DNA from: a virus
Lineage: Duplodnaviria > Caudoviricetes
IMG/VR virus record: IMGVR_UViG_3300021255_002777
Span: 18,750-82,749 of that record
Direction: 5' to 3' (one strand)
DNA length: 64,000 nt
This document shows positions 23,539 to 63,819 of this stretch, one piece after another (the first letter of the stretch is position 1; each line of letters opens with the position of its first letter). A program made the position numbers and the translations under genes. The notes under the pieces were generated by a model, which was given only the letters and a program-made list of their open reading frames with translations, had not been told where the DNA came from and did not search any database.

Positions 23539-24438
23539 TCAACTAGGTATTGCTTGGATTCTACTTGCGTATGAACTCCAATTAGTCGCTGTTTTGTATG
23601 CATCAACGCTTTCCACTGGTACATAAATCGGTGCGTTGTTTGTATTGTTAAACGCGTTTGACCCTAATGTCGGTGGTGTTGTTGCCTGTACTGTGATTTC
23701 TGTTAAGGTTTTCATATAACTGAAAGTGCCAGTTCCGATGCTAGTTACTCCACTCGGGATAACGAGTGTAGTCAACACATTAGAACTAGAAGAAGAATTG
23801 TAACCACAATAATAAAAAGCATAACTACCGATTTTTGTAAGTGTGGATGGGAGTGTTACCTTACTTACATAGTAAGTCATTTCAAAAGCATCAAGTCCTA
23901 TTTCTGTGATACCTTCAGGTATGTCTATAACCGCTCCTTTGGTGCTTGATAAAAAACAACAATAAGAAAAACAAGCATTCGGAATTTTGCCAATCCCTGA
24001 TGGGATATTAAATGTCTTTAGAGACTTTTGGTACTGGAAAGCATTTGTCCCCAAACTTCTCAAAGAACTTGGTAACTGTACCGAAACAATGTTAGCTTCC
24101 CTTTCATTGGCTACAAGTTCAGCAGAAAACGCACGTTTTCCTATAGTAGTGACTCCTTCTGGAATGACCACATTTTGTATACGTGTACGAGCAAATGCGT
24201 AATCACCGATGGTTGTTACTGTGCTTGGTATATCAAATTCGGTAAACATTCGGTTATCCACGAAGGCATATGGAGCAATCTGTGTTACTCCCGATGGCCA
24301 GTTAACTTTCTTGATATAATTCGCTCCAAAGTTTAAATCTGAGCCATTAGGCCACTTTACCTCAAATATGCACTGGTGATCACTATCACCACTGCTGGTG
24401 GTTGAAGTTAGTATTCTACGTCTAGTTAATTCACTCAT
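23539..24438 (-). CDS. BspA-type (LRR_5) leucine-rich-repeat protein, putative receptor-binding/adhesin subunit
   Basis: Repeats of IP.GVT.IG..AF; C-terminal TPPTLGSNAF...IYVPVESVDAYKTATNWSSYASRIQAI, typical of Bacteroidales BspA proteins. Confidence 0.85.
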   Translation of the reverse strand: MSELTRRRILTSTTSSGDSDHQCIFEVKWPNGSDLNFGANYIKKVNWPSGVTQIAPYAFVDNRMFTEFDIPSTVTTIGDYAFARTRIQNVVIPEGVTTIGKRAFSAELVANEREANIVSVQLPSSLRSLGTNAFQYQKSLKTFNIPSGIGKIPNACFSYCCFLSSTKGAVIDIPEGITEIGLDAFEMTYYVSKVTLPSTLTKIGSYAFYYCGYNSSSSSNVLTTLVIPSGVTSIGTGTFSYMKTLTEITVQATTPPTLGSNAFNNTNNAPIYVPVESVDAYKTATNWSSYASRIQAIPS

Positions 24439-36224: not shown

Positions 36225-37736
36225 TTATGCAGAGAGCATGTTGGGGATAATGCTCATGGTGCGGGTGGGATCGAGAACCATGATTCCAAGCTGTGCCATC
36301 TTGTGGATGACTGCGCTATCCTCATCATAGCTCATGTAGGGATTGTACGAAGTGCCCAGGAACGGATTGCGCATACCTGCTTGATAGCCACGGTACTCAG
36401 GCTTGCCCTTAATCTCACAAATCTGGATGTTGGGCTGGTCCATAGTACCGATATCAAAGATATCATAGCGGTAACTCATTGCAGGGCCTCCAAGGTAGTG
36501 CTCAACCTTGTTACGTACAGGGTCATCATAGAACGGGTCAACCTCGACCTTCAATACCAAGCCGTTGGGAGCACGCCACTCGGTGAACTGGTAGCCGGCA
36601 CTCAGTGAAGTGCTGTGCAGTTCGGAGTTAGTCTTCTTGATGGCACCCATTGCAGTTGCATCCATCTCAAAGGGGAGCCATCCGCTGACATCCTCCTTGA
36701 CGGCCTTGTGGAACTGGGCTGCACCACGCTCACCAGTGCGCATAACGAAATTACGCTCACCGAAATCAAGCTTAGCGGCACTCAGCTGATACAATGCATT
36801 CTCCAGCAGGCGTAGCGAGAAGTCACTGTAGTACATAGTATTGGCGACCTCCATCTGCTCAAACAGACCTGCACCAGTCTTAATGACACCACCGCTGCGG
36901 CCAATGTTGGTGTATTCACCGTTCTTGTTGCGGTTGCTGCGACCAAAGACAAGGGCGTTGTTCTTGTACTCGGAGAACTGCTCCTCGACCTTGTAGTCAA
37001 CGTAGTACATCCAGGTGTCAATAACAGTGTGAGTGTAGCGGCCGTTGGTCTGCTTAACAATAGGCAGACCTACTGCCAATTTCTTGTCAAGCATGTTGCC
37101 GGTCACCTTGTGCTGGATACGTACAGTGCTCCACTCATTGCGCATGGCAACAGGAGTCGAGAAACGTACATCGCCTACCTTGCGGCTCAGCTCACGCTCA
37201 ACGAATGCTGCCTCAATGGAGAAACGCTCACCAGCAAGCAGACGCTCAGCGGGAACACCGTCGGTATTACCACCGCCAAGCTCTACCTTATAGACGGCGC
37301 GAGTACCTTCCATGCGGGCATTCTCAATGATGCGGAACTGGTAAACCTCGTTCAAGTTACCTACAATGTACTCACCGAGAGCGAACCAGTCCTCATCGAA
37401 TACCAGCTCGAAGGGTGCAGTGCCTGCACCAATCATAGCACCGTTGTTGGTGACTTTTACACCGTTCTCATCACGGGCTTCAACCAGAGGAATGTTACGA
37501 CGGCTGGAGCCAATGACGTTCCAATAGAACTCCTCGTCGTTGTCAAACTGCTTGCGAGGCAGGCGATTCAACAGGCTCTCAAGGGTATTGCCTTTCTTGA
37601 AGGCGAGCAGCTCAATCATCGTGTTGGTGGCGAGCTGGGGCTTGCGCTGGAAAATAGCACCCAGGTGGTTGTCTTTGGTCATGCCTTTCCAGGTCTTAAA
37701 GCCGATAGTCTGAAATCTACTAAGTCTTCCTGACAT
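36225..37736 (-). CDS. Major capsid protein (HK97 fold, Crassvirales; crAss001 gp32-like)
   Basis: 503 aa; WKGMTKDNHLGAIFQ, AFVERELSRKVGDVRF, MRNEWS, YRYDIFDIG motifs closely resemble the crAss001 MCP as recalled. Confidence 0.93.
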   Translation of the reverse strand: MSGRLSRFQTIGFKTWKGMTKDNHLGAIFQRKPQLATNTMIELLAFKKGNTLESLLNRLPRKQFDNDEEFYWNVIGSSRRNIPLVEARDENGVKVTNNGAMIGAGTAPFELVFDEDWFALGEYIVGNLNEVYQFRIIENARMEGTRAVYKVELGGGNTDGVPAERLLAGERFSIEAAFVERELSRKVGDVRFSTPVAMRNEWSTVRIQHKVTGNMLDKKLAVGLPIVKQTNGRYTHTVIDTWMYYVDYKVEEQFSEYKNNALVFGRSNRNKNGEYTNIGRSGGVIKTGAGLFEQMEVANTMYYSDFSLRLLENALYQLSAAKLDFGERNFVMRTGERGAAQFHKAVKEDVSGWLPFEMDATAMGAIKKTNSELHSTSLSAGYQFTEWRAPNGLVLKVEVDPFYDDPVRNKVEHYLGGPAMSYRYDIFDIGTMDQPNIQICEIKGKPEYRGYQAGMRNPFLGTSYNPYMSYDEDSAVIHKMAQLGIMVLDPTRTMSIIPNMLSA

Positions 37737-47965: not shown

Positions 47966-50386
47966 TTAGCTGCTTGAGTTCTTGTGGGCATTGATGGACT
48001 GCTTCTGCAATTCTTCATTGCGCCTGTTAGACCTCTCCTGTTCACGCTGCTTTCTCTCATCCAAGGCTAGGCGGCGGTCAAACTGCCGGATACTTTCCTG
48101 AAGTTTAAGCCTCTGGTCTTCCGTCTGCGGGGCCTCAATGCCGTCGTCAAGGTGGTCTGCCTGTAGTTTGACGGCTGCGGCCTGTATGTAACCCTCTGCC
48201 TCAAGCCGCGAAGCAAGGACACGACTGTCGTTGTCCCTCTGGTTCATCTTATCCTTGAGTGCAAGCTCTTCCTCATGCTGCTGCATTTGCATCTCCAGAG
48301 CCTGCTGCTGTTGCTGCATTGCCTGCTGTTGTTGCTGTTGTGCCTGCTGTTGCTGCCTGCGTTCAGCGTTCTCAATCATACGCTGTTTCTGTGACAACGA
48401 CGCGGAGCCATACAGCTTCATCATGCTTGAGAATGTAAGTAACTGGTTCTGAAGACCAGCCTGTGCCAAGCCTTCGAGATTCTGACTAAGTTTCTGTGTA
48501 CCTGTGCTGTTGTCGACAACAAGTCCATAATCATTTTCACAGAATTGGTCACCGTCAATCTCAACGAGCTCGTAACTGCCGTCATCCAGTAGGAACCTGA
48601 ACTTTAGCTTTCTGCCACGTACAGCGATCTTGGCTGTCTCAAGAAATGCAGTGAGTACACGCTTTTTAAGATCATCGTGCATAGAAAACAGCCACTCGGT
48701 AATGTGTGTACTCTGCAATGTACTGCGCTCAACACCACCGACAGTCTCTCTGGAAGAAATCTGTCCGATACGCTGTTTGGTGATGCCGGTCACATCACCG
48801 ATTTCCTGCTTGATGTACTCAAGGATATTCATATGCTGCTGGATGATATCACCTGTCTCGGCATCAATCACAGCAGAGTAGTTGTTATTCATGGCGCCAA
48901 CCATAAGGCCGTTTGGCCCTTCCTGCATACTGTTGTAAACTGCAAGATTGTTGGCGCGTGCATAGTAAATCCATTTATCTATCTCCCATCCATGCGGAAC
49001 CTTTGCAAGGTCAAGCGGGATAATCTTGCCCCAGTTACGGGCAATGAGTTTATTAAGCCTGTCATGCACAGCATCATACAGGTAAGAGAATGGCTTCATC
49101 ATATCCACCATAGAATATGGATGGGAGTCATTGAAGTTATAGACAGAACCTATGATACCGAAATGGCAACGGCTGGGGTTGCTGAGACTGTTGTACTGAA
49201 CGGGACACGGGCCCATGTTGACATAGATGTCATCACCGATTTTCACACCTTCCCAAGCCTGGTTAATCCAGAATGTTTCTTCGGTTTCGCCAGCAGCCTC
49301 GTCAATCACATATTGCTCAGTGTAGAAGTGGAACTCCTCTTTACCTTCCTCGTTATACGATTTAACCTTCTTGATTCTGCGCCTTGACTTCCAGTACATT
49401 TGTATAACGCGGATGTTGCCTGCAAGATCATAAGGCAACAACCTATCGTAACCGTCAAGATCACCAAACAGGTCAGAGTAGAACATGCCGCCAACGTCAG
49501 ACTGGTCAGTAATCATGAAATTGGGAAGGAACGAATGGCGTTCATCAATCTGGTCCATAGAGTTCACAGCACCTTTGCCGACACTGCGCGGAAGCTCCTC
49601 AAGATGCAGAACCTGCTTTGGTGTAAGCTGTTCGCCATAGATGTCAACAATCTTTCCAGGCGAGATGTAGTCCTCAATGACAACAATATCAGCGTCTTCA
49701 ATACGACGGCTATTGCCAGCCATAAACACCCTGACCTTCATAGGATTAAGGCGTTTAAGCACTGGTTCCCCACCCTCTATAGTGCATTGATAGATTTCCT
49801 CACCGACTGTTAAGGCATCCATGAATCCGTCATTGAATATCTGCGGAAAGTTCTGTTCACGCCAATAGTGGGTAAGTAGCCTGTTGGCACGAAGCTCACG
49901 CATATCTTTCCAGGTAAACTGGAAATAATCACCAAGCTCTTCCATTCTTGCATTGTAGGCATTCTCATCCTGAGCGTTCTGTTGCAGAGTTGTTTGCAGC
50001 GCGGCCAGCGCAGCATCACGTTTACTTAACTCAATATCAGAAACCGCGTCAGGATTGGTCACAACCACCTGGTAATCAAAAACACGGGCAAGCTCCTCAC
50101 CGCGCAGCACGTTAAGGCTGGCGTTGATGATGGGGTAATGCTGAATCTTTTCTGGTATGTATTCACTACGTATCCTGTCAGGGTTGAGCATATACTCAAG
50201 GTCCTCCATATACAGGACACCGTTGACTAAGTCATAGTTTATCTTCTTCCGCTGCACACTCTTGCGCACAGGACTGAAATTGAACAAAGACTTGTCATCT
50301 GCCCAGTCCAGGTGTTGCTTCCTCCATTTCTTCGTCTTACTCTTGTAGGGAAGCTGTTGGCGCGGTATGTCTACATTGTACGGCAT
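47966..50386 (-). CDS. Portal protein (crAss001 gp20-like)
   Basis: 806 aa from ATG 50386; IQHYPIINASLNVLRGEE, RETVGGVERS motifs; poly-Q coiled-coil crown; next to terL. Confidence 0.9.
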   Translation of the reverse strand: MPYNVDIPRQQLPYKSKTKKWRKQHLDWADDKSLFNFSPVRKSVQRKKINYDLVNGVLYMEDLEYMLNPDRIRSEYIPEKIQHYPIINASLNVLRGEELARVFDYQVVVTNPDAVSDIELSKRDAALAALQTTLQQNAQDENAYNARMEELGDYFQFTWKDMRELRANRLLTHYWREQNFPQIFNDGFMDALTVGEEIYQCTIEGGEPVLKRLNPMKVRVFMAGNSRRIEDADIVVIEDYISPGKIVDIYGEQLTPKQVLHLEELPRSVGKGAVNSMDQIDERHSFLPNFMITDQSDVGGMFYSDLFGDLDGYDRLLPYDLAGNIRVIQMYWKSRRRIKKVKSYNEEGKEEFHFYTEQYVIDEAAGETEETFWINQAWEGVKIGDDIYVNMGPCPVQYNSLSNPSRCHFGIIGSVYNFNDSHPYSMVDMMKPFSYLYDAVHDRLNKLIARNWGKIIPLDLAKVPHGWEIDKWIYYARANNLAVYNSMQEGPNGLMVGAMNNNYSAVIDAETGDIIQQHMNILEYIKQEIGDVTGITKQRIGQISSRETVGGVERSTLQSTHITEWLFSMHDDLKKRVLTAFLETAKIAVRGRKLKFRFLLDDGSYELVEIDGDQFCENDYGLVVDNSTGTQKLSQNLEGLAQAGLQNQLLTFSSMMKLYGSASLSQKQRMIENAERRQQQQAQQQQQQAMQQQQQALEMQMQQHEEELALKDKMNQRDNDSRVLASRLEAEGYIQAAAVKLQADHLDDGIEAPQTEDQRLKLQESIRQFDRRLALDERKQREQERSNRRNEELQKQSINAHKNSSS

Positions 50387-50404
50387 AGTAATATTATTCC
50401 GTGA

Positions 50405-50412
50405 CAAAATTA
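50405..50412 (-). promoter_or_regulatory. Bacteroidetes -7 element TAATTTTG for the portal unit
   Basis: TAnnTTTG match 19 nt upstream of the portal ATG. Confidence 0.55.
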
Positions 50413-50471: not shown

Positions 50472-52823
50472 TTATTTCCTAAGTGAACTGAAGTCTATTG
50501 CAGGGCCGAGGCCGTCATAGTCATCAACAATATCAGGCATTCCACCACCAAACCTACTGTCGTAATTATCCTTGAAATACTTGTCATTCGCCATCGGGTC
50601 TTCTGGAGGAGTGTATTTCTCTGTACGTTTACCTATGGACACGAGTCTGTCTTCGCGTAATAGCATAAGCATGATGTTGGCGCTTACACGATCAAAGTTA
50701 CCTTGTGGATTCCATTGCGACAATTCTTGAAGATAAGCCCTGTTACGGATAGTGAATAAGCGCGGAACTTTGATAGTATTCTCCTCTCCGTTGTCTTTTG
50801 TAGTAACATCAACAAGTTCACGCAAAAAATGGTCAATAAGGTCTCGGCCATACTTATTCACTGCTTCCAGCGCCTTTGTGCCCTTAGCGGTGTTACCGTA
50901 GGTTGGGGCCTTGATGAGCATCTTATCACGGAGAATCTTCAAAGTGTCCGTCAACAGATAAACACTGTGCATCTTTGAGAAATAGCCAAACAAGCCCTTC
51001 TTATCATTCTCGTAGTTGAGTCTTGCATCATAAAACAGGCACAACCTTCTGCAGGTCTCGTAAAAATCCTCGGCAAGCATCGGTCTGCCAGTGTACTCAG
51101 CAACTATCCTGTCAGTCCATGTATCAAGAATGAAGATGCTCCCTAATGAGGTGGTGCCACTGACATCATCATCATAAGGGTCAGCACCAGCAATATAACG
51201 CATAGGGAACGGTTTACCGTCTTTGCCTTTCTCAGGCATCTCAAAGATTTCAATAGCACCTGCCATACCTTTATTATCCTTATGCGGAAAGAACCTGATA
51301 GGCTCAGCAGAAGTAGGTTTGAATACAACCTCACCTGCTGGGTTGATGGCCAGCTCACCAGAGTAAGCATTGTCATAAAACCTGGGATTGCTGTCAATCT
51401 GCAGCAACCTTTCCATAATATCGGTGACAGGAAACTTAGAGTAGGTTGTTCTGATAATGGCCTCAGCTGGGGTAATCGGCATCTCAGCGGTAACCTTAAC
51501 AATCTTCTGTGGGTCTCCTGTCTGATACTTAGCCTTGTATCTCTCATTGAGAACAAACAGGAGAGAGGAGACAACGTCGCTCACACCGTCTTTGTTGTAC
51601 CTACCTTTGATATTGGCATAAGCAGGGGAAAAGTAGGCAAAGTACGGTCTGCCTTGGTTTGGTCTGTCCCACACGTTAGGAAGTGCATACACATCATAGC
51701 CTATCGGGTTGTATAGGATCTCCTGTGCTCCAAAGAAGTCACTATCGCTGTCACCAGCGGTACCCAATGCATAGAAAAAGCCATACTTCAAATCACCCTC
51801 CTCCATACCGTATTTGGCAATGTTGACTGTATCAATGAAGTTGGGAAACGAACCGAACTCCTCAAAGAGCAACACACCACGCTTACCACGAACCTTCTCA
51901 GGGTCATTGTCGACGGCTATGCCAGAAACAGAGTTAAGTGTGCCTGAACGTGTACCAGTAGTCTTGTCCACAAAACCCATGACCCAGTTCAGTTTGTTTG
52001 GTGAGTTAACTACACGGTGCCTCGGGAACTGCGTGTTCTTCGCGCAAAAGTCGATGTTTGGGACAAACTTGGTCAGTGTACCATCAGTACCAGTAAGGTA
52101 GGTCCAGTTGGCTGCAATGACAAACGTAGTGAAACGCCTTGATGATTCGGCATCCTCGCCTAAGATGAAGTTCCTTGCAGCGATACAGGCCAGTGAGAAC
52201 GACTTACCACTGCCACGCTTTGACAACTCAACAGCATAATTACCGCCTTCAAAGTTGTTGTACTTACCACCATACCTGGCCTGCTCAAGGTAATGGAATC
52301 TCCAGTAAGCAATTTCCCAAGGCTCAGGAAAGCCTTCAGTACGTGAACCGACCTTACTCTTCCCTTCTTTGGCTTTGGTAACCATGATAGGGCAATAGTT
52401 CAAGTAAAAGTACAAGTAACCAGGAACCCACTCACCGTCCTCAGGCCTGACCATGCCTTCCCAACACCTGCGCACCTCCTCATCAAGCCATTTCCTGAAC
52501 GGGGAATTGGGGTTGCTGTTTGGCTTCAGTCTTGTATAGCAGCCGTATGTTTCATAGTGTATGGCAGCCTGCCTGAAATAATCCATGTTCTCCAGGATAT
52601 GCGGATGCACCAAATCAACAATGATTCTCCCTTTGCTGTCACGGGGAAGGTCACGGGCACGTTTCCTGTCAGGGGAAATGAGACTCTGGATAAACGGTAC
52701 AGAGGACACAAACTCCATGAACTGCTCACGAACCTCTTGCGGTTGCTTGGACAGTAGCTCTTCAGTAATTGGTGTCTGATACTTATTGGTGGGTATTATG
52801 ACATTATCCGTAGTACTCGTCAT
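50472..52823 (-). CDS. terL: Terminase large subunit
   Basis: Walker A SKRGSGKS, Walker B LLFEEFG, RNase H-like YIAGADPYDDD, NFDRVSA; no intein or intron evident. Confidence 0.93.
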   Translation of the reverse strand: MTSTTDNVIIPTNKYQTPITEELLSKQPQEVREQFMEFVSSVPFIQSLISPDRKRARDLPRDSKGRIIVDLVHPHILENMDYFRQAAIHYETYGCYTRLKPNSNPNSPFRKWLDEEVRRCWEGMVRPEDGEWVPGYLYFYLNYCPIMVTKAKEGKSKVGSRTEGFPEPWEIAYWRFHYLEQARYGGKYNNFEGGNYAVELSKRGSGKSFSLACIAARNFILGEDAESSRRFTTFVIAANWTYLTGTDGTLTKFVPNIDFCAKNTQFPRHRVVNSPNKLNWVMGFVDKTTGTRSGTLNSVSGIAVDNDPEKVRGKRGVLLFEEFGSFPNFIDTVNIAKYGMEEGDLKYGFFYALGTAGDSDSDFFGAQEILYNPIGYDVYALPNVWDRPNQGRPYFAYFSPAYANIKGRYNKDGVSDVVSSLLFVLNERYKAKYQTGDPQKIVKVTAEMPITPAEAIIRTTYSKFPVTDIMERLLQIDSNPRFYDNAYSGELAINPAGEVVFKPTSAEPIRFFPHKDNKGMAGAIEIFEMPEKGKDGKPFPMRYIAGADPYDDDVSGTTSLGSIFILDTWTDRIVAEYTGRPMLAEDFYETCRRLCLFYDARLNYENDKKGLFGYFSKMHSVYLLTDTLKILRDKMLIKAPTYGNTAKGTKALEAVNKYGRDLIDHFLRELVDVTTKDNGEENTIKVPRLFTIRNRAYLQELSQWNPQGNFDRVSANIMLMLLREDRLVSIGKRTEKYTPPEDPMANDKYFKDNYDSRFGGGMPDIVDDYDGLGPAIDFSSLRK

Positions 52824-53012: not shown

Positions 53013-53315
53013 TTAGTATATTATATCATTTTTCTGCGTTAACATATCTGCACGCGCAGCATTGAGAAGACTTGCTATAAAGTCAGCAGTAACACTGCGC
53101 CAGGCTGCATTTTCATCAACTTGACTTGTGTTAACCTGATGCATAAATCTGAAACTCAAGTCAAGCGGCCTACTGTCAGCAATTACTGAGTACGTGGTAA
53201 TGACAGGAAACTTGGTGTTTTTCCTGCTAGAACCGTAAACAACAAACTCAGCATCAGGAAAAGCAATATTAAGTGCATCATTAATGCAGTTTAAAAAATC
53301 AGTGTACGTTAGCAT
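53013..53315 (-). CDS. Hypothetical protein
   Basis: 100 aa ORF, ACTATG start context, tightly packed with neighbours. Confidence 0.6.
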   Translation of the reverse strand: MLTYTDFLNCINDALNIAFPDAEFVVYGSSRKNTKFPVITTYSVIADSRPLDLSFRFMHQVNTSQVDENAAWRSVTADFIASLLNAARADMLTQKNDIIY

Positions 53316-53410
53316 AGTTTAACACAATTAGTTTTGTATGAGTGAACAGACCATATATTTTACCTAAGGTTAGATAATCTTAATACTACGAAGCTTTCAC
53401 CTTACCCGCT

Positions 53411-53500
53411 GCTGTGCGCAGAATGCGCATAGCTGTTAAACGCAAAGCTGTTTAACGTAGACATATTACACTATGCATAGTGCTCGGCTGGGCTCGGCTG
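53411..53500. repeat. Cluster of inverted and direct repeats in an intergenic region
   Basis: GCTGTGCGCA-gaa-TGCGCATAGC; GTTAAAC-8-GTTTAAC; perfect palindrome CACTATGCATAGTG (53469-53482); GCTCGGCTGG x2. Confidence 0.8.
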
Positions 53501-55515: not shown

Positions 55516-55737
55516 TCAGTCATTCTTTCCGCCACGGAGAATGGCACGTTTGTGGTTGACGTAAGGCTCACCGTACTTTTTCTCGTACACCTCTTCCCAG
55601 ATGTAGATATTGGGCAGTTCACCTATGTCAGTACTTCCGCAGTGTTTGCAGAAATCCTGGCCCATCTCCGATTCGATGCCCAAACTCAAGCAGCGACGGC
55701 AATAAAAAACAGGGTCTGTGTCTTCTTTCCTAATCAT
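55516..55737 (-). CDS. Small zinc-ribbon protein
   Basis: PVFYCRRCLSL...FCKHCGST (two CxxC pairs). Confidence 0.75.
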   Translation of the reverse strand: MIRKEDTDPVFYCRRCLSLGIESEMGQDFCKHCGSTDIGELPNIYIWEEVYEKKYGEPYVNHKRAILRGGKND

Positions 55738-55907
55738 CGGTAGTACAAAAGCACATACCCGCCTTGAATCGGAGTCAGTGAAACAAACTCCTTATCAGTG
55801 ACACGTAGCATGTTTGCACGGTCAACACAGCCAAGCACTGAGTTCTCAACAACAACCCTCAGCGCTTTTGTTTCCTTCTCCTTAGTATCTTTTGCGGTAT
55901 TGTCCAT
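55734..55907 (-). CDS. Small hypothetical protein (first gene of the late unit)
   Basis: MDNTAK...YVLLYYR; ATG 55907 lies downstream of the promoter at 55926-55933. Confidence 0.6.
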   Translation of the reverse strand: MDNTAKDTKEKETKALRVVVENSVLGCVDRANMLRVTDKEFVSLTPIQGGYVLLYYR

Positions 55908-55924
55908 ATATGCAATAATTTCCC

Positions 55925-55933
55925 GCAAAGTTA
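55925..55933 (-). promoter_or_regulatory. Bacteroidetes -7 element TAACTTTGC at the head of the late operon
   Basis: TAnnTTTG match in the gap between the integrase stop and the first late gene. Confidence 0.6.
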
Positions 55934-55990
55934 ATGAAGTGTGTTTAATTATGCAAGTTTTAGATTAATTTTTGCATATAAATTTTGTTA

Positions 55991-57148
55991 CTATACATTC
56001 TTTCCCAGAACATAGTCAATCACGGCCCTGTTCGCTTTGTCGACTTTACTATGGTCAAATGTGATATAGATATCAGTCACAGTGATGTTGGAATGACCAA
56101 GTGCAGCAGCTATAGTTTCCTTAGGTATGTCAAGGCTTGCTGCGATTGTTGCCCAGGTGTACCTTGCACAGTATGTTGTCAATGAATTGTATCCGACCTT
56201 TTTTCCAATGTGTTTCAACAATCTGTTTATCATTATAACAAGGCTGTGTGCATTCTTGTAATGCTTGACCCAGTTCATGACGGAGAGCAGCGCTCTGGCT
56301 TCGGGCTGCAGTGAAAACTCATAAGGCTTCCCTGTTTTCTGTCTGAAGTATTTCACCTTCCTACCGTTGCATTCTAGTAGTATCAGGTCTGCCATGTTGA
56401 TTCCAATCATGTAGAAGGAAAGCATGAAACAATCCCTTGCATTAGCCTCAGAACCAGTCAGTTTTATGTTGATTAGTTTTCTCAATACATCAACAGGTAA
56501 TGCTCTTGGTTTAGTTGGCTCTCCACGTATCTTGAACTTTCTGAACGGATAGTTGAGTGTCAATCCATCGTCAATGGCTGCATTGAATATCGTTCTGAGG
56601 TTCCTGAAATGCACAGACCTTGCATTCATCGAAGGGCAGCCATGCTCGGATAACCACTTGTCAAACCTACGCAGCCATGTCGGGTTCACGGCGTCAAAGA
56701 CCAGGCTCTCTACTTTGGGATTAAACTGTGTCATCCTGCTGATTGTGGAACGGTACACGGACTTTGTGTTCTTCTTCGATTTCATCTCCATGTACTGCCT
56801 CATATAATTCAGCACAAGTTTAGTGGATATGTCCGGGGTAACCAAAGACTGCATAACTAGATCACGCAGTTGCACAGAATCAATCACACCGGCATCAAAG
56901 CCGTCAGAGATTTTGAGCAGGGCGTCCTGTGCTTTGATGAGCAGTCTATGTGCTTCAAGTGTCAGCTTTCCGGCATCAGGGTGACGTATCACGCATTGCT
57001 GCTTTTTGTCCCATTGTTGTTTGGTCAGTTTGATTCCAGTCTGTGCATAGCTTGTCTTACCACAGGAAGAGAATGCCAGCATCAATGTACGTACACTGTC
57101 TTTGGTGTACCTGTTGTTGTCAGGCAGATGTAGAGATATCTTTGCCAT
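55991..57148 (-). CDS. int: Tyrosine integrase, Bacteroidetes (IntDOT-like) family
   Basis: N-terminal arm-binding region, SAM-like core (KNTKSVYRSTI..M..F), catalytic GINMADL, YFRQKTG, TTYCARYTWAT, ALGHS, TDIY; start at ATG 57148. Confidence 0.92.
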   Translation of the reverse strand: MAKISLHLPDNNRYTKDSVRTLMLAFSSCGKTSYAQTGIKLTKQQWDKKQQCVIRHPDAGKLTLEAHRLLIKAQDALLKISDGFDAGVIDSVQLRDLVMQSLVTPDISTKLVLNYMRQYMEMKSKKNTKSVYRSTISRMTQFNPKVESLVFDAVNPTWLRRFDKWLSEHGCPSMNARSVHFRNLRTIFNAAIDDGLTLNYPFRKFKIRGEPTKPRALPVDVLRKLINIKLTGSEANARDCFMLSFYMIGINMADLILLECNGRKVKYFRQKTGKPYEFSLQPEARALLSVMNWVKHYKNAHSLVIMINRLLKHIGKKVGYNSLTTYCARYTWATIAASLDIPKETIAAALGHSNITVTDIYITFDHSKVDKANRAVIDYVLGKNV

Positions 57149-57175
57149 AGTATTTTGGTTTAGGTTAACGGTACC

Positions 57176-57184
57176 GCAAAGATA
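57176..57184 (-). promoter_or_regulatory. Integrase promoter -7 element TATCTTTGC
   Basis: TAnnTTTG match 28 nt upstream of the int ATG, abutting the arm-type repeats. Confidence 0.7.
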
Positions 57185-57254
57185 GTAAATCATTCACTAT
57201 TTTTTCACTATTTCAGATAGTGAATCGCCATTAAGCATAGTGTTGCACAGTGTA

Positions 57255-57290
57255 CAAAAACAAAGGACAGAAGTCACGTAAACTTCTGCC
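57255..57290 (-). terminator. Intrinsic terminator downstream of the tRNA-Ser fragment
   Basis: Minus strand: GCAGAAG-tttacgtga-CTTCTGT then cctttgtttttg. Confidence 0.6.
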
Positions 57291-57295
57291 CATCA

Positions 57296-57358
57296 GCGGA
57301 GTGACCGAGATTCGAACTCGGGATACGCTTTTGACGTATACACGCTTTCCAGGCGTGC
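57296..57358 (-). mobile_element. attP-like core: 3' portion of tRNA-Ser(GGA)
   Basis: Minus strand: anticodon arm CACGC-CTGGAAA-GCGTG, long variable arm, T-arm CCGAG-TTCGAAT-CTCGG, acceptor 3' strand TCACTCC-G. No 5' acceptor strand (GGAGTGA) or D-arm upstream. Confidence 0.88.
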
Positions 57359-57429
57359 ATATTGATTTTATAATGCACTGAATTACAACACCGTGAATAC
57401 ACAGCAGATAACATTTCACTATTTTTTCA

Positions 57430-57830
57430 GCATAGTCTCTGCTCACAGTACCTTTACGTTTATTTAACATAGTCCCCCCCCCCACCTTTGCATAGCGTTG
57501 CATTGCCCCCCACCCAGTTGTTGTGCAGAAAGACTGCACAGGTCAGACTCATTTTACGAAGCATAGTAAAATAAGCATGTAAATCTTTGCTTAGTTTGCA
57601 GCGCATTTCAGCATAGCTTTTTACACTATGCATAGTACAGAGTTTGCACAGTTCTTTGCTTTGTTTTGCAACGTGTATGTGCAGAGCATAGTGAGGTCAG
57701 TTTTGTGAAAATCAGCAATGTCTCTGCAAAGGGGAGATAGTCCCCCCATACCCCACCCTATTACAGCGTTAAGGTAACCATCCCCCCTTAACGTGACTTA
57801 CTTTAACCCAGGGGAGCAGATCAAACTACA
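57430..57830. other. Non-coding strand-switch region with GCATAG repeats and C-tracts
   Basis: GCATAG at 57430, 57490, 57561, 57611, 57630, 57686 (also 57235); C10 at 57474-57483; further C-runs at ~57496-57505, 57742-57758, 57782-57787. Confidence 0.7.
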
Positions 57831-58951: not shown

Positions 58952-59025
58952 GGTCCTATAGCTCAGTTGGTTAGAGCACCTGACTCATAATCAGGGGGTC
59001 CTTGGTTCAAGTCCAAGTGGGACCA
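58952..59025 (+). tRNA. tRNA with CAT anticodon, probably tRNA-Ile2 (lysidine type) rather than Met
   Basis: Full cloverleaf, loop CTCATAA; acceptor C4-G69 and C5-G68 (TilS determinants in E. coli); CCA not encoded. Confidence 0.85.
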
Positions 59026-59121
59026 CAACTTTGAGGTTACTTTTTTACCATTGAGCTGCATCTCCGCTGTGAAGCGCATGGTGCAGTATTTTATCTGATT
59101 TCATCAGTTAAACACACACAA

Positions 59122-59196
59122 GGTTCTGTAGTTCAACGGATAGAATGGTTGTCTCCTAAACAGCAGATACGGGTTCGATTCCCGTCAGAATCACCA
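59122..59196 (+). tRNA. tRNA-Arg(CCT)
   Basis: GGTTCTG/CAGAATC acceptor stem, GTTGT-CTCCTAA-ACAGC anticodon arm, GTTCGATT T-loop, encoded CCA. Confidence 0.9.
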
Positions 59197-60575: not shown

Positions 60576-60710
60576 ATGAAACCGTCTAACCGCCAGCTGT
60601 TCGGCTGGATTATCACAATCGCAAGCGTGGTGTTCATCGTGAGCACCATGCCAGTGATTGTAGCTATTGCCGGACTAATCCTCGGATGGTGGCTCATTAA
60701 GAAGGGCTAA
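60576..60710 (+). CDS. 44-aa two-TM membrane peptide (not in the ORF track)
   Basis: MKPSNRQLFGWIITIASVVFIVSTMPVIVAIAGLILGWWLIKKG; ATGA-coupled to an 18-aa ORF at 60523-60579. Confidence 0.65.
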   Translation: MKPSNRQLFGWIITIASVVFIVSTMPVIVAIAGLILGWWLIKKG

Positions 60711-60734
60711 TCATCATAGCACTAAATCAATCAG

Positions 60735-60773
60735 AGCAGGTGACCCAATGACGTGGAGGGTCACCTGCTTTTT
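60735..60773 (+). terminator. Intrinsic terminator
   Basis: Perfect 12-bp stem AGCAGGTGACCC/GGGTCACCTGCT followed by TTTT. Confidence 0.85.
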
Positions 60774-60809
60774 CTATATAATCCCGTCAGTTAATTCAAA
60801 GAAACAGAA

Positions 60810-61052
60810 ATGGCACAAGAACAAGATGCTATTATCCGCCGACCTGTATCCTATGAAGAGCTGCTGCTGGAGAAGTTTCTCCGTGACAGACAGTATGCCC
60901 TTTACTGGAAGACACGTGACGGCCAGAAAATCACGCTCTCGAAGCTAAGTGATTTCCACCTTGAGAGAATTATCAACTTTATCAACCGCAACCGGGAAGC
61001 CGCAGAACATCTTGAAGACTGTGACATCCTGGACAAAGATTACAACGAGTAA
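60810..61052 (+). CDS. Hypothetical protein
   Basis: 80 aa; WKTRDGQKI.LSKLSDFHLERII motif. Confidence 0.7.
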   Translation: MAQEQDAIIRRPVSYEELLLEKFLRDRQYALYWKTRDGQKITLSKLSDFHLERIINFINRNREAAEHLEDCDILDKDYNE

Positions 61053-61054
61053 CT

Positions 61055-61417
61055 ATGAAGAAGGTATTAATAGCATTATTTTTACCATCGATGATAGGTC
61101 TTGCCGTTTTCCTGTGGCCTAGACCAGTCAAGACTGAACCGATAGAAGAGGTGTACCACGAAAAGGTCATTAACGGCCTATTTGACCTAGTTGTAGAGTC
61201 AGAGCCCCTCAGTCAGGAGCTACTGAATGCCAATCCGAAGTTGTATAACTTTGTAATGGAGCACAAGGATTGTCTTACCTGCAAAGCTATAGCTCTGCTT
61301 GCTTTGCGTCAGAATGACGACAGCTGGGCAGATACCTTGGGCGAATACATCGATGACAACGAGCTTGACTCCTGCATCGTTAAGGTGTTGTTTGACGCAG
61401 AATGTGAGAAGTTATGA
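61055..61417 (+). CDS. Membrane-anchored hypothetical protein
   Basis: MKK plus a hydrophobic N-terminal helix. Confidence 0.7.
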   Translation: MKKVLIALFLPSMIGLAVFLWPRPVKTEPIEEVYHEKVINGLFDLVVESEPLSQELLNANPKLYNFVMEHKDCLTCKAIALLALRQNDDSWADTLGEYIDDNELDSCIVKVLFDAECEKL

Positions 61418-61611
61418 CAAATGGCTGCATATCAGGTGCTGCGCATAACTTCATCAAGTATGCGTACTTGCTCCCAAAGGACGTATTGCCTGAGTACGTA
61501 TTTGACACACGTAATCATGATGTAGTAGATGAAATCACCGAAACCCAAGGGATTGAAAGCCCAGAAGAACTTATCTACCACCTCTACGAAGGCACGTGGC
61601 TCGAAGAGTAA
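61414..61611 (+). CDS. Small hypothetical protein
   Basis: 65 aa; ATGA overlap with the upstream gene. Confidence 0.6.
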   Translation: MTNGCISGAAHNFIKYAYLLPKDVLPEYVFDTRNHDVVDEITETQGIESPEELIYHLYEGTWLEE

Positions 61612-62089
61612 ACCGCATGTGTTCATCTATACAGTCGGTGAACAGAACAAAGCCCCTTACGTATCTTATCTGTTACAGAAAATATGGGACAGAAGGTACG
61701 TCTGCTTCTGCCCGGATATGAAGACTGCCCGTGAGTTGTATACAAACAACCCATTGGGCAGTTGTTGTGTCGCGTCATGTACAAAGAACAACAAGAGACT
61801 GAAGTCATTCAACGACTACAATCATGATCATTTGCTGCTCACAAAAGCTGTCAATGCTGATGCTGAGTATAAGGATGTTGAGTGTCTTGTGTTCGTCAAT
61901 CCTGATGCGGCACCATATACCGTACAGACATTCACCAAAAAATTGTGTTCCGCTGACAAGAAGATCTACTTCTTTGTACACGGAGATACAGAACGTGAAA
62001 ATGCCGAATTTCTTAGCAGCCTAACAGGTTGCACAGCTTTAACAAGGTTTTATTTCAGACCGGAAATTTTAAACAACAAACAGTTATGA
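61529..62089 (+). CDS. Stand-alone degenerate SF2 helicase C-terminal (RecA2)-like domain
   Basis: YVCFCPDMKTAREL and LLLTKAVNADAEYKDVECLVFV align to helicase motifs IV and V; motif VI (QxxGRxxR) absent; start may be GTG 61619. Confidence 0.5.
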   Translation: MKSPKPKGLKAQKNLSTTSTKARGSKSKPHVFIYTVGEQNKAPYVSYLLQKIWDRRYVCFCPDMKTARELYTNNPLGSCCVASCTKNNKRLKSFNDYNHDHLLLTKAVNADAEYKDVECLVFVNPDAAPYTVQTFTKKLCSADKKIYFFVHGDTERENAEFLSSLTGCTALTRFYFRPEILNNKQL

Positions 62090-62295
62090 ACGGATATATT
62101 GTCCACACGAAAGAAGGTTTCTTCCTTGGAGCCTTCATCACGTTTAATGAGGCCCATAAGTTTGCCTATAACCACCAGCAAGACACGGGTACCCGTGTGT
62201 TCGTATCAAAGGAGCGCAAATTCCGAGAGCGCTACATCAAGCAAGCAGGGCTCGAAGAACGGATCCTTAACCGCACATTAAGCTTTTTGTCATGA
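62086..62295 (+). CDS. Small hypothetical protein
   Basis: MNGYIVHTKEG...; ATGA overlaps with both neighbours. Confidence 0.65.
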   Translation: MNGYIVHTKEGFFLGAFITFNEAHKFAYNHQQDTGTRVFVSKERKFRERYIKQAGLEERILNRTLSFLS

Positions 62296-62534
62296 GCACC
62301 GAGTATCCCGTTAGGATTGTGCGTGACACCCGAGTAAAAGCGTTCACGTACAGGACTGCCAAACAGTACCTGAAAGAGAAAAACATTCTTTCTGTATATT
62401 GCCCGTTTACTGAAACAGTGTGGGAGATTATACAGCAAGACCCAGAGCAAGAGCTTGTACAGGCTTACGAAGACATCGCAATGGCAGAAGCCTACGGCGC
62501 TGAAGACAGGTTTCTTGCATTTTGTTCGTATTAA
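62292..62534 (+). CDS. Small hypothetical protein
   Basis: 80 aa; ATGA overlap. Confidence 0.65.
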   Translation: MSTEYPVRIVRDTRVKAFTYRTAKQYLKEKNILSVYCPFTETVWEIIQQDPEQELVQAYEDIAMAEAYGAEDRFLAFCSY

Positions 62535-62571
62535 ATTACGCAAAAACTGTGTAAATCTGCAAAACTATTGG

Positions 62572-62580
62572 TAAATTTGC
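62572..62580 (+). promoter_or_regulatory. Bacteroidetes -7 element TAAATTTGC for the helicase unit
   Basis: TAnnTTTG match 22 nt before the helicase ATG, inside a 3 x 20-bp imperfect repeat. Confidence 0.65.
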
Positions 62581-62601
62581 AAAAATAATCCAAAAACAGA
62601 T

Positions 62602-63819
62602 ATGGAGAAATCCCTCCTAAGCAGAACAATGGACGGGATGCAGAAAAATAGAGAGCGCCTGGATAAGGGCGAGATCAACTGCATCCCGTATCCTTTCGCC
62701 AGAAGCCAGAAAATGTTTCCCGGCATGGAGCGTGCTGAGTATATAGATATCCTGGCAGCCACAAAGGTAGGAAAATCACAGTTCCTGTGTAACCTGCTCT
62801 TTGAGGCCCTCATGGAGCTCTATTGGGGCAAATCAATATTTGACATCAATATCATCTATTTTGCCCTAGAGGAAACCCCAGAGCGCATCATGCAGCGCTT
62901 CATGAGCTGGTTGTTATACCGCGAGAGCAATGGAAAGATACGTGTATCTCCATTGGAGCTCAGAAGCACCATGAAGAAATGTCCGCAAGAAGCAATGGAC
63001 TTCCTCGAACAAGCCTACATTCAGGACATCCTTGAGTTCTTCGAGGCGCATATCACATTCCCGCCACGCAGTGAGAGCAACCCGACAGGCATTTACAACT
63101 ACTGCCGTGATTGGGCTGAAGCCCGTGGAAAGAGAGTGGAAAAGGAATACGAAGAGATGCCTGGCATCATCAAGAAGTCCTTTGACCACTATGAGCCCGA
63201 CGATCCAAACGCGTTCAACATTATTGTCATTGACACCATCAACCTTGTTGAGGGTGAACGTGACATGCGTGAACATGAGAAACTGCGCAAAATTTCAGAG
63301 TATTGCTGCAAGTATCTGCGCAACGACTATTTCTTTACTATCCTTGCCATTCAGCAGCTGAACTTTGAGAGCTACTCACTTGAAGCCTCAAAGCAGAAAA
63401 GGTTTGAACCAAATCTTGGTTCTGCAGGAAACAGTAAGGAAGTGCTGCGTGATTTTGATACAGCTATTGCTCTGTACAAACCGTATGAGTACGAGCCGGA
63501 TACCCAGTATTGCGGTTATGATATCCGCAAGCTCAACAAACGTGGCATCTTTGCGAAGTACATGTTCAATCGCAATGGCGAAAGCGGTGGCGTAACTCCG
63601 TTGTTTTTTGATGGAGCAGTATCCCATTTCTGGGAATTGCCAAGACCGAAAGACACTGGTGCCATCACCGCCGTCTATAACTATTGTGACCAGATGCTCC
63701 TTCCGCACACAAGCGAGGAGCTGGCCAACCTGAACCCATTCCTCAAAAAGGAGGAACCCAAGAAAGAGAAAAAGGAGACTATCACATTCCTTAACCTATT
63801 ATTCAACCACAAGAAATGA
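62602..63819 (+). CDS. DnaB-like replicative helicase (Crassvirales type)
   Basis: INCIPYPF, Walker A AATKVGKSQF, IIYFALEE, Walker B IIVIDTINL, IQQLN, KYMFNRNG. Confidence 0.85.
   Translation: MEKSLLSRTMDGMQKNRERLDKGEINCIPYPFARSQKMFPGMERAEYIDILAATKVGKSQFLCNLLFEALMELYWGKSIFDINIIYFALEETPERIMQRFMSWLLYRESNGKIRVSPLELRSTMKKCPQEAMDFLEQAYIQDILEFFEAHITFPPRSESNPTGIYNYCRDWAEARGKRVEKEYEEMPGIIKKSFDHYEPDDPNAFNIIVIDTINLVEGERDMREHEKLRKISEYCCKYLRNDYFFTILAIQQLNFESYSLEASKQKRFEPNLGSAGNSKEVLRDFDTAIALYKPYEYEPDTQYCGYDIRKLNKRGIFAKYMFNRNGESGGVTPLFFDGAVSHFWELPRPKDTGAITAVYNYCDQMLLPHTSEELANLNPFLKKEEPKKEKKETITFLNLLFNHKK

Follow-up and report, generated by a model that had tools for sequence, protein, structure and literature searches.

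The stretch analysed here, referred to as the window, comprises 64,000 nucleotides (bases 18750-82749) of a linear IMG/VR record of 82,749 bp (IMGVR_UViG_3300021255_002777) with a CheckV completeness of 82%. Positions 55734-57429 of the window very probably make up an entire integration cassette of lambda type, seen in the excised (attP) form of a Steigviridae-like crAss phage from the ruminant gut. The cassette combines a tyrosine integrase gene (int) with the 3' part of a host tRNA-Ser(GGA) gene, and a related phage carrying the same arrangement was found, as judged from assembled junctions, in Muribaculaceae chromosomes at that tRNA gene. From this relative, it is very likely that the window phage itself integrates. 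The features of the cassette are as follows.

55734-55907, minus strand: 57-aa open reading frame (ORF) directly downstream of int, with int-linked conservation
55991-57148, minus strand: tyrosine integrase, 385 aa (Pfam, PHROG 'integrase', AlphaFold, alignment of 62 homologues)
57177-57184, minus strand: −7 promoter box TATCTTTG of Bacteroidota type, 29 nt before the int start codon
57193-57224, no strand assigned: predicted P' arm with three ATAGTGAA sites, two in tandem (11-bp spacing) and one inverted; includes the first copy of TTCACTATTTTTTCA
57255-57291, minus strand: predicted intrinsic terminator that the phage contributes to the restored tRNA gene (11-bp stem, then a T run), directly after the core
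57296-57358, minus strand: attP core, 63 nt, 3' part of the host tRNA-Ser(GGA) gene, with exact host matches
57415-57429, no strand assigned: predicted P arm with one ATAGTGAA site, the second copy of TTCACTATTTTTTCA, about 72 nt from the core

A preliminary description of this DNA had claimed a full-length tyrosine integrase with its own promoter. The integrase was borne out: the ORF is intact, encodes three domains, for arm-DNA binding (N-terminal), core binding (SAM-like) and catalysis, and carries the residues that are invariant in its family. The longest integrase ORF (55991-57193, minus strand) would encode 400 aa; we placed the likely start at the ATG at 57148, which gives 385 aa, because 60 aligned homologues all begin with MAKI(S/T)L and the −7 box lies upstream of this codon. 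Pfam detected PF17293 (Arm-DNA-bind_5) at 26.6 bits against a cut-off of 22.6, and PF13102 (Phage_int_SAM_5) at 62 bits. An AlphaFold model made with 62 homologues reached a pLDDT of 90.4, its top PDB matches were Tn1549 Int, Brujita Int, XerA, lambda Int and Cre, and full-length lambda Int aligned with it across 385-396 columns. When the PDB was searched with the sequence, the SAM-like domain alone was matched (2KEY), and NCBIfam returned weak Xer-type matches alone, far under the cut-offs. Among the 62 homologues, R329, H352 and Y361 are invariant, K271 is conserved in at least 90%, and R238 is the majority residue. The catalytic fold and the R-K-H-R-H/W-Y set of the tyrosine recombinase superfamily are present, with Tyr326 at the position of the first His, and in sequence and predicted fold the protein has the make-up of a lambda-type heterobivalent (arm-binding) integrase. 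As to the promoter, the box TATCTTTG is indeed present upstream of int, and its CTTTGC core is kept in three diverged lineages; because it resembles the Bacteroides promoter consensus, TAnnTTTG, it probably acts as the int promoter.

The fragment of tRNA-Ser(GGA) that had been reported about 150 bp upstream of int, without a 5' half, proved to be 63 nt long and to lie 148 nt from the ATG at 57148 (103 nt from the start of the longest ORF). It begins at the base before the anticodon stem, takes in the anticodon GGA (57350-57348), the long variable arm, the T arm and the 3' strand of the acceptor stem, and ends one base past the discriminator. Because it has neither D arm nor 5' acceptor strand, ARAGORN and Rfam called no tRNA at 57296-57358. 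An ORF on the minus strand at 57231-57539 was rejected as a gene, its apparent homologues being translated tRNA DNA. No full-length cognate tRNA-Ser, which would have marked the fragment as the end of an unrelated element, was found in the whole 82.7-kb record. When the core was compared with Bacteroidales genomes, as the preliminary description had proposed, a 55-nt part of it matched tRNA-Ser(GGA) exactly in 55 species-representative genomes. In 51 of 56 host loci the matching stretch is part of a complete tRNA-Ser(GGA) gene whose 5' context is GGAGTGATGCTCGAGTGGCTGAAGAG; in three more this gene is cut by a contig or locus end. Phage-host identity extends 8 nt 5' of the 55-mer and ends at the anticodon stem, and at the other end it stops directly after the discriminator. 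Integrative elements that target tRNA genes carry the 3' part of the tRNA in attP, and integration restores the gene; the attP of the window holds the host 3' part in just this orientation. The matched genomes are named as Muribaculaceae, Sodaliphilus, uncultured Bacteroidales, 'Prevotellaceae' and 'Porphyromonadaceae', and most of the names point to the ruminant or other animal gut. Judged from these sequence matches, the host is a ruminant-gut Muribaculaceae (Sodaliphilus-like) bacterium. At one host locus (L016) the tRNA-Ser copy lacks the 5' acceptor strand alone, and in one Sodaliphilus metagenome-assembled genome (MAG) one contig ends and another begins precisely at the 55-mer within the tRNA (L011 and L012). 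These loci may mark other elements at the tRNA-Ser site, or strain heterogeneity.

The terminator directly after the core has a counterpart in the related phages, each of which has its own, different hairpin and T run at the same place. The identical 15-bp repeat that the preliminary description had placed on either side of the fragment, TTCACTATTTTTTCA, is present and exact at 57193-57207 and 57415-57429, but it is better explained by arm-type integrase sites than as the ends of an element. Sites of the motif ATAGTGAA lie at 57193, 57204, 57217 (inverted) and 57415; four of the seven in the 64 kb thus fall within 230 bp around the core, against an expectation of 2.7 for the window as a whole. 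In other lineages, repeats occupy the same offsets, about −75 and +63, +84 and +95, but are of lineage-specific sequence (AAATACGGAG in L162, AAGATTGAAGA in L156 and other motifs in L155), and between the window and L161, whose Int is 90% identical, the repeats are conserved. The sequence of the arm repeats changes along with the integrase lineage, and their positions stay constant. Because of these fixed positions, the lineage-specific sequence and the adjacent integrase with its arm-binding domain, we predict that the ATAGTGAA repeats are the P and P' arm-type binding sites of the integrase.

In the protein database, about 30 clusters are 60-90% identical to the window integrase, after which identity falls to about 42%, which sets off a discrete clade. 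Each clade member examined (L073/L076, L078, L154-L159, L161 and L162) has one and the same place in crAss-like contigs, with the small genes upstream of TerL on one side and the replication module on the other, or else sits on a short contig beginning at the core. In every contig that includes the upstream flank, int is preceded by the same tRNA block (57-69 nt), which is 100% identical in all clade contigs, with both flanks diverged beyond alignment; at least six diverged flank contexts surround the perfectly conserved block. Among 80 TerL-related IMG/VR loci, the cassette was found only in the two that had both a TerL identity of at least 76% and enough upstream flank, and TerL relatives at 60% identity or less had no cassette at this position. 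A scan of JGI metagenomes with the integrase alignment gave seven loci, and all six close relatives are in attP form. With 55900-57700 as the query, blastn matched nothing in the GenBank phage collection, and GenBank phage records contained no integrase more than 42% identical to that of the window. The 57-aa ORF is conserved at 40-84% in 12 of 12 int-bearing lineages tested and was not detected in the int-less relatives L080, L109 and L089, whereas the next ORF (55516-55737) is conserved in int-bearing and int-less groups alike. Because the 57-aa ORF tracks int and its neighbour is common to both groups, the unit that was acquired would comprise attP, int and the 57-aa ORF. The 57-aa product received no Pfam, PHROG or Atlas assignment; it is probably part of the cassette, in which it may serve as an accessory or directionality factor.

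The prophage layout that had been predicted, with an intact tRNA-Ser at attL, a 3' duplicate at attR and crAss-like genes, was found for a clade member whose integrase, P0022, is 61% identical to that of the window. P0022 occurs in attP and attL contexts, and the attR of the same phage was also seen. The attP form is a 52-kb contig (L162). In the attL form (L163, 72,090 nt, and L165), ARAGORN called a full-length tRNA-Ser(GGA), and the order is host upstream context, full tRNA, phage terminator, int, TerL and portal. This tRNA is composed of a host 5' part and a phage 3' part. In more than 20 host loci from MAGs, the DNA upstream of tRNA-Ser is collinear with the host flank of attL (4.7 kb, with PIF1 helicase and Endonuclease_1), at 80-84% nucleotide identity, and L163 is 99.98% identical to L162 over 11,360 nt, beginning 2 nt before the core. 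The attR form (L168, 36,751 nt with 27.5 kb of host DNA, L170 and L172) was found via the first phage gene across attP and reads from the phage left arm through the core (the tRNA fragment) and the host terminator into host genes for GSCFA, Mur-ligase/Ala-racemase, LRR_5, a deaminase and an esterase; the DNA downstream of tRNA-Ser in L004 matches this host side at 85.8% identity. All four forms, attP, attB, attL and attR, were thus observed for this clade member and, based on these contigs, we conclude that it is inserted at tRNA-Ser(GGA) in Muribaculaceae chromosomes. At the amino acid level, the window and the P0022 phage are 79% identical in TerL, 83% in portal and 61% in Int, and 99.8% identical in the DnaB-like helicase and 96-100% in the neighbouring replication genes. 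The replication module shows this 96-100% amino acid identity when window positions 60700-63819 are compared with L162 and L168; L161 is 90% identical to the window in Int and 97% in TerL, yet 60% in the helicase. By these identities, both phages belong to one gene pool as mosaic members.

For the lineage of the window, the same attP arrangement recurs at 99.85-100% identity in independent ENA and Logan assemblies (99.85% in L178/L184), which reproduce the junctions; the arrangement is not an assembly chimera. Phage genes lie on both sides of the fragment, as had been stated: TerL, portal and the major head protein (MCP) on one side and the DnaB-like helicase on the other. A Logan contig that starts inside the core (L185) was rejected as a sign of integration, since k=31 together with a core shared with host tRNA genes explains the break; L164, L166, L167 and L190-L192 were set aside for the same reason. 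When the window ORFs were compared with 55 host tRNA loci (8 kb each), no crAss genes were found beside the tRNA, and the matches were one 28% integrase and a host LRR gene.

Several results weigh against integration by the window phage. Its lineage (the window, L178/L184 and L161) was seen in attP form only, and an integrated form in a host chromosome was observed for P0022 and found in no case for this lineage. A scan of IMG/VR for the full-length tRNA of an attL form gave no contig, and no crAss-type MCP was detected in 401 sampled genomes of the host family, which are a sample and not the whole family. The integrated forms of P0022 are themselves taken from metagenome assemblies. Among the neighbouring small ORFs, neither Pfam nor PHROGs recognised a repressor or an excisionase, the pair expected of a temperate phage, and the candidates for a regulator are limited to the int-linked 57-aa ORF and an array of GCATAGY sites. 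Finally, the match of the integrase to PF00589 (Phage_integrase), at 24.6 bits, is slightly under the gathering cut-off of 27.1, and across the whole integrase family an invariant Tyr326 stands in place of the first catalytic His (Y326-x-x-R329). The preliminary description had proposed a temperate Crassvirales lineage at tRNA-Ser(GGA), and the evidence as a whole supports it: integration was seen in a mosaic relative, and the window phage itself was seen as attP only.

One could envisage that the clade integrates and that this lineage has lost the competence to do so, for example through mismatched arm sites or lost regulators, so that the cassette is a relic in a lytic phage. Both the attP-only record of the lineage and the missing repressor and excisionase fit such a loss, but the integrase ORF is intact with every family-invariant residue kept, the core matches the host tRNA at 100% identity, the window and L161 have their arm repeats in common, and terminator and promoter are intact. 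We therefore regard loss of competence as unlikely. It is still less probable, and in our view very improbable, that the relative's attL and attR contigs arose as chimeras during assembly, through the sequence common to the P0022 phage and the host tRNA (58 nt), and that the clade never integrates and uses the module for another purpose such as multimer resolution. A false join at the shared repeat would yield exactly such attL-like and attR-like contigs, and Logan contigs with k=31 do break at the core. However, both junction types recur in several assemblies made with two assemblers, including the MEGAHIT k141 contigs L165 and L172. Contigs of this kind need reads that span the 58-nt repeat, the k-mer being longer, and a false join through the repeat is therefore unlikely in these two. 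Moreover, attL and attR came from the same samples and attP from another, and a resolution site would leave a host-identical block of 57-69 nt in at least six diverged flank contexts unexplained. We dismiss as hardly credible the idea that the fragment is a phage tRNA gene, unrelated to the integrase, that decayed from the intergenic tRNA array of relatives, as crAss001-like relatives do hold a 22-tRNA array in the same zone (L089) and the window has tRNA-Met and tRNA-Arg 1.6 kb away, but decay would not leave 100% host identity that ends at the anticodon stem in every lineage, would not account for the fixed distance to int or the fragment's own terminator, and would not make the attL and attR forms switch exactly at the tRNA block.

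A functional integration cassette, the reading we prefer, would operate as follows. The N-terminal domain of the integrase would bind the arm-type ATAGTGAA repeats, located about −72 and +72 to +97 from the core, the SAM-like and catalytic domains would bind the core, and the integrase would recombine attP with its attB, which is the tRNA-Ser(GGA) gene in the chromosome of a Sodaliphilus-like member of the Muribaculaceae. The crossover would fall within the 63 identical nucleotides, the anticodon loop or the 3' side of the anticodon stem being the likeliest position. The product at attL would be an intact tRNA gene composed of the host promoter, 26 nt of the host 5' part, 63 nt of the phage 3' part and the phage terminator, with int and then the genes for packaging and structure behind it; at attR, the 3' fragment displaced from the host gene would adjoin the phage replication module. 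The function of the arm sites, the position of the crossover and the role of the 57-aa ORF are what we infer in this scheme.

The position of the crossover can be narrowed with a second prophage at the same site. An unrelated 70.5-kb HK97-type tailed prophage with TerL, portal and tape measure genes (G001:C2:1-70632; L067-L070) lies between a full tRNA-Ser and a 3' fragment; its integrase is 36% identical to that of the window and uses the same attB, tRNA-Ser(GGA). The tRNA at its attL carries two compensatory changes in the variable arm that are missing from the attR fragment. Because of these differences and the left edge of the identity, its crossover can be confined, by comparison of the two junctions, to CCTGGAAAGCGTGTA, which covers the anticodon loop and 3' stem, and the crAss phage probably crosses over in the same stretch. 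Integrases 34-40% identical to that of the window are encoded directly downstream of tRNA-Ser(GGA), tRNA-Gly(CCC) and tRNA-Arg(TCT) in the same MAGs, and the family, from these locations, appears to target several tRNA genes. Those next to tRNA-Gly(CCC) and tRNA-Arg(TCT) (L071:11385-12910 and L072:399-2106) are 34-36% identical. Two non-crAss contigs, L194 (IMGVR_UViG_3300032038_000817) and L196 (IMGVR_UViG_3300028591_000473), have the identical tRNA-Ser core, integrases that are 31-35% identical and a few tail-fibre-like genes in common with the window (26-40% identity). Because these contigs carry the identical core and share some genes with the window, several phage types of these hosts appear to compete for one attB. 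MT835494.1 (99.8 kb, Int 35%) was considered as an integrase-bearing crAss-like phage and rejected, as it has no crAss MCP. Since related integrases lie at tRNA genes in the same MAGs and non-crAss phages have the same core, the crAss lineage most likely captured its cassette from resident temperate phages.

The crAss identity of the window is defined by three hallmark genes.

36225-37736: crAss-type MCP (PHROG, E 8.6e-106)
47966-50407: portal (PHROG, E 5.1e-131)
50472-52823: TerL, large terminase (PHROG, E 2.4e-99)

The MCP is 70.4% identical to that of Kahnovirus oralis cr85_1 (Crassvirales; Steigviridae; Asinivirinae) and 65.5% to that of PhiCrAss001, and the crAss-type MCP, portal and TerL occur in the crAss gene order that characterises Crassvirales and Steigviridae. 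Because of these PHROG hallmarks and the MCP identity to Steigviridae, we assign the window phage, on sequence grounds, as a Steigviridae-like crAss phage; its habitat is the ruminant gut (rumen). The tRNA-Met and tRNA-Arg of the window are at 58952-59196. In crAss001-like relatives the 22-tRNA array (L089:878-7116) lies upstream of the same small-gene block, of which the window retains only these two tRNAs. A 299-aa repeat-bearing phage protein (window 23539-24438, minus strand) is 27-40% identical to a host LRR_5 (BspA-like) gene, and in many host genomes the distance from this gene to the tRNA-Ser attB is no more than a few kb (for example L003, L010 and L040; L168:620-1768).

Two further sequence patterns were observed around the cassette. 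The motif GCATAGY occurs in eight copies, seven of them on one strand, within 460 bp between attP and the first early gene (57235-57692), and in four copies within 170 bp of another non-coding stretch (53312-53481); the window has 30 copies where 19.4 are expected. A palindrome, ACTATGCATAGT, is found at 53470 and 57625. GCATAGY is enriched in L161 too, and not in the other lineages. Together, GCATAGY and ACTATGCATAGT could be operator or promoter sites for some regulator. In the divergent intergenic region (window 57466-57512) there are two homopolymer tracts rich in C, CCCCCCCCCCACC and CCCCCCACCC, the first of which is where the Logan contig L180 begins. These could be variable tracts or simply hard to sequence.

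Lambda-type tyrosine integrases whose attP has a P-core-P' organisation at a tRNA 3' part are known from HP1, P4 and P22-type elements, and an anticodon-loop sublocation class of tRNA-targeting integrases was reportedly described by Williams in 2002. The system described here is like them in its three-domain fold, in arm-type repeats on both sides of the core, in an attP that runs from the anticodon stem to the 3' end and leaves the gene at attL intact, and in the position of int directly downstream of the tRNA in the prophage. It differs in that the window integrase is only 12-19% identical to solved integrases and has Tyr for the first catalytic His, and in that the carrier is a crAss-like podovirus of about 95-100 kb with no recognisable Xis or CI. 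The temperate non-crAss phages of Bacteroidales (BS-TP2, Bacuni_F1/F2/F4, Versailles, G001:C2, L194 and L196) have integrases of the same family at 31-42% identity, and G001:C2, L194 and L196 use the same tRNA-Ser(GGA) core; in contrast, the crAss integrases form a clade apart (at least 60% identity, with a gap below), and the virion and replication modules are unrelated. The cultured Steigviridae PhiCrAss001 (Kehishuvirus), the crAssBcn phages and Kahnovirus oralis cr85_1 resemble the window phage in MCP (65-70%), portal and TerL families and gene order; unlike it, they have no integrase and are described as non-lysogenic (PMC6235969, PMC10354031).

Cultured crAss-like phages have been described as being without lysogeny genes (PMC6235969, PMC10354031), and their persistence has so far been explained by a carrier state, host phase variation or a plasmid-like prototype (PMC6235969, PMC10354031, PMC10983915), Carjivirus communis having been proposed as a phage-plasmid (PMC10983915). 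Repressor and anti-repressor genes and partial Parabacteroides prophages were reported for epsilon crAss-like phages (PMC11054128), and tool-predicted 'crAss-like prophages' at the level of catalogues (PMC12454387, PMC11923282). A mouse catalogue found integrase enrichment in Intestiviridae and Zeta, with integrase modules rarely detected in Steigviridae (PMC13503771). The literature so far offers hints of crAss lysogeny only, and among the papers found, none resolves the att sites of any Steigviridae-like phage. The other non-lytic lifestyles proposed for crAss-like phages address the same question, that of persistence without killing the hosts, but the case presented here differs from them in being classical chromosomal integration, with four att forms at nucleotide resolution, in a Steigviridae-like phage.

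Taken together, the Steigviridae (beta crAss-like) phages of the ruminant gut probably include a genuinely temperate clade of genus rank, which would have captured attP, int and the 57-aa ORF from a pool of Muribaculaceae prophage integrases, and would lysogenise Sodaliphilus-like hosts at tRNA-Ser(GGA) and swap whole modules. It has long been asked how crAss-like phages stay so abundant without eliminating their hosts, and a named host group, a defined target gene and att forms at the nucleotide level make crAss lysogeny directly testable. The integrase with its attP of about 300 bp is a natural tool for DNA insertion into Muribaculaceae chromosomes, and crAss-like contigs with the cassette should not be scored as virulent in virome surveys. 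If this reading is correct, it would offer a route to crAss lysogens and to engineerable crAss vectors, and integrative lysogeny would be a living strategy inside Crassvirales, an order usually called non-lysogenic.

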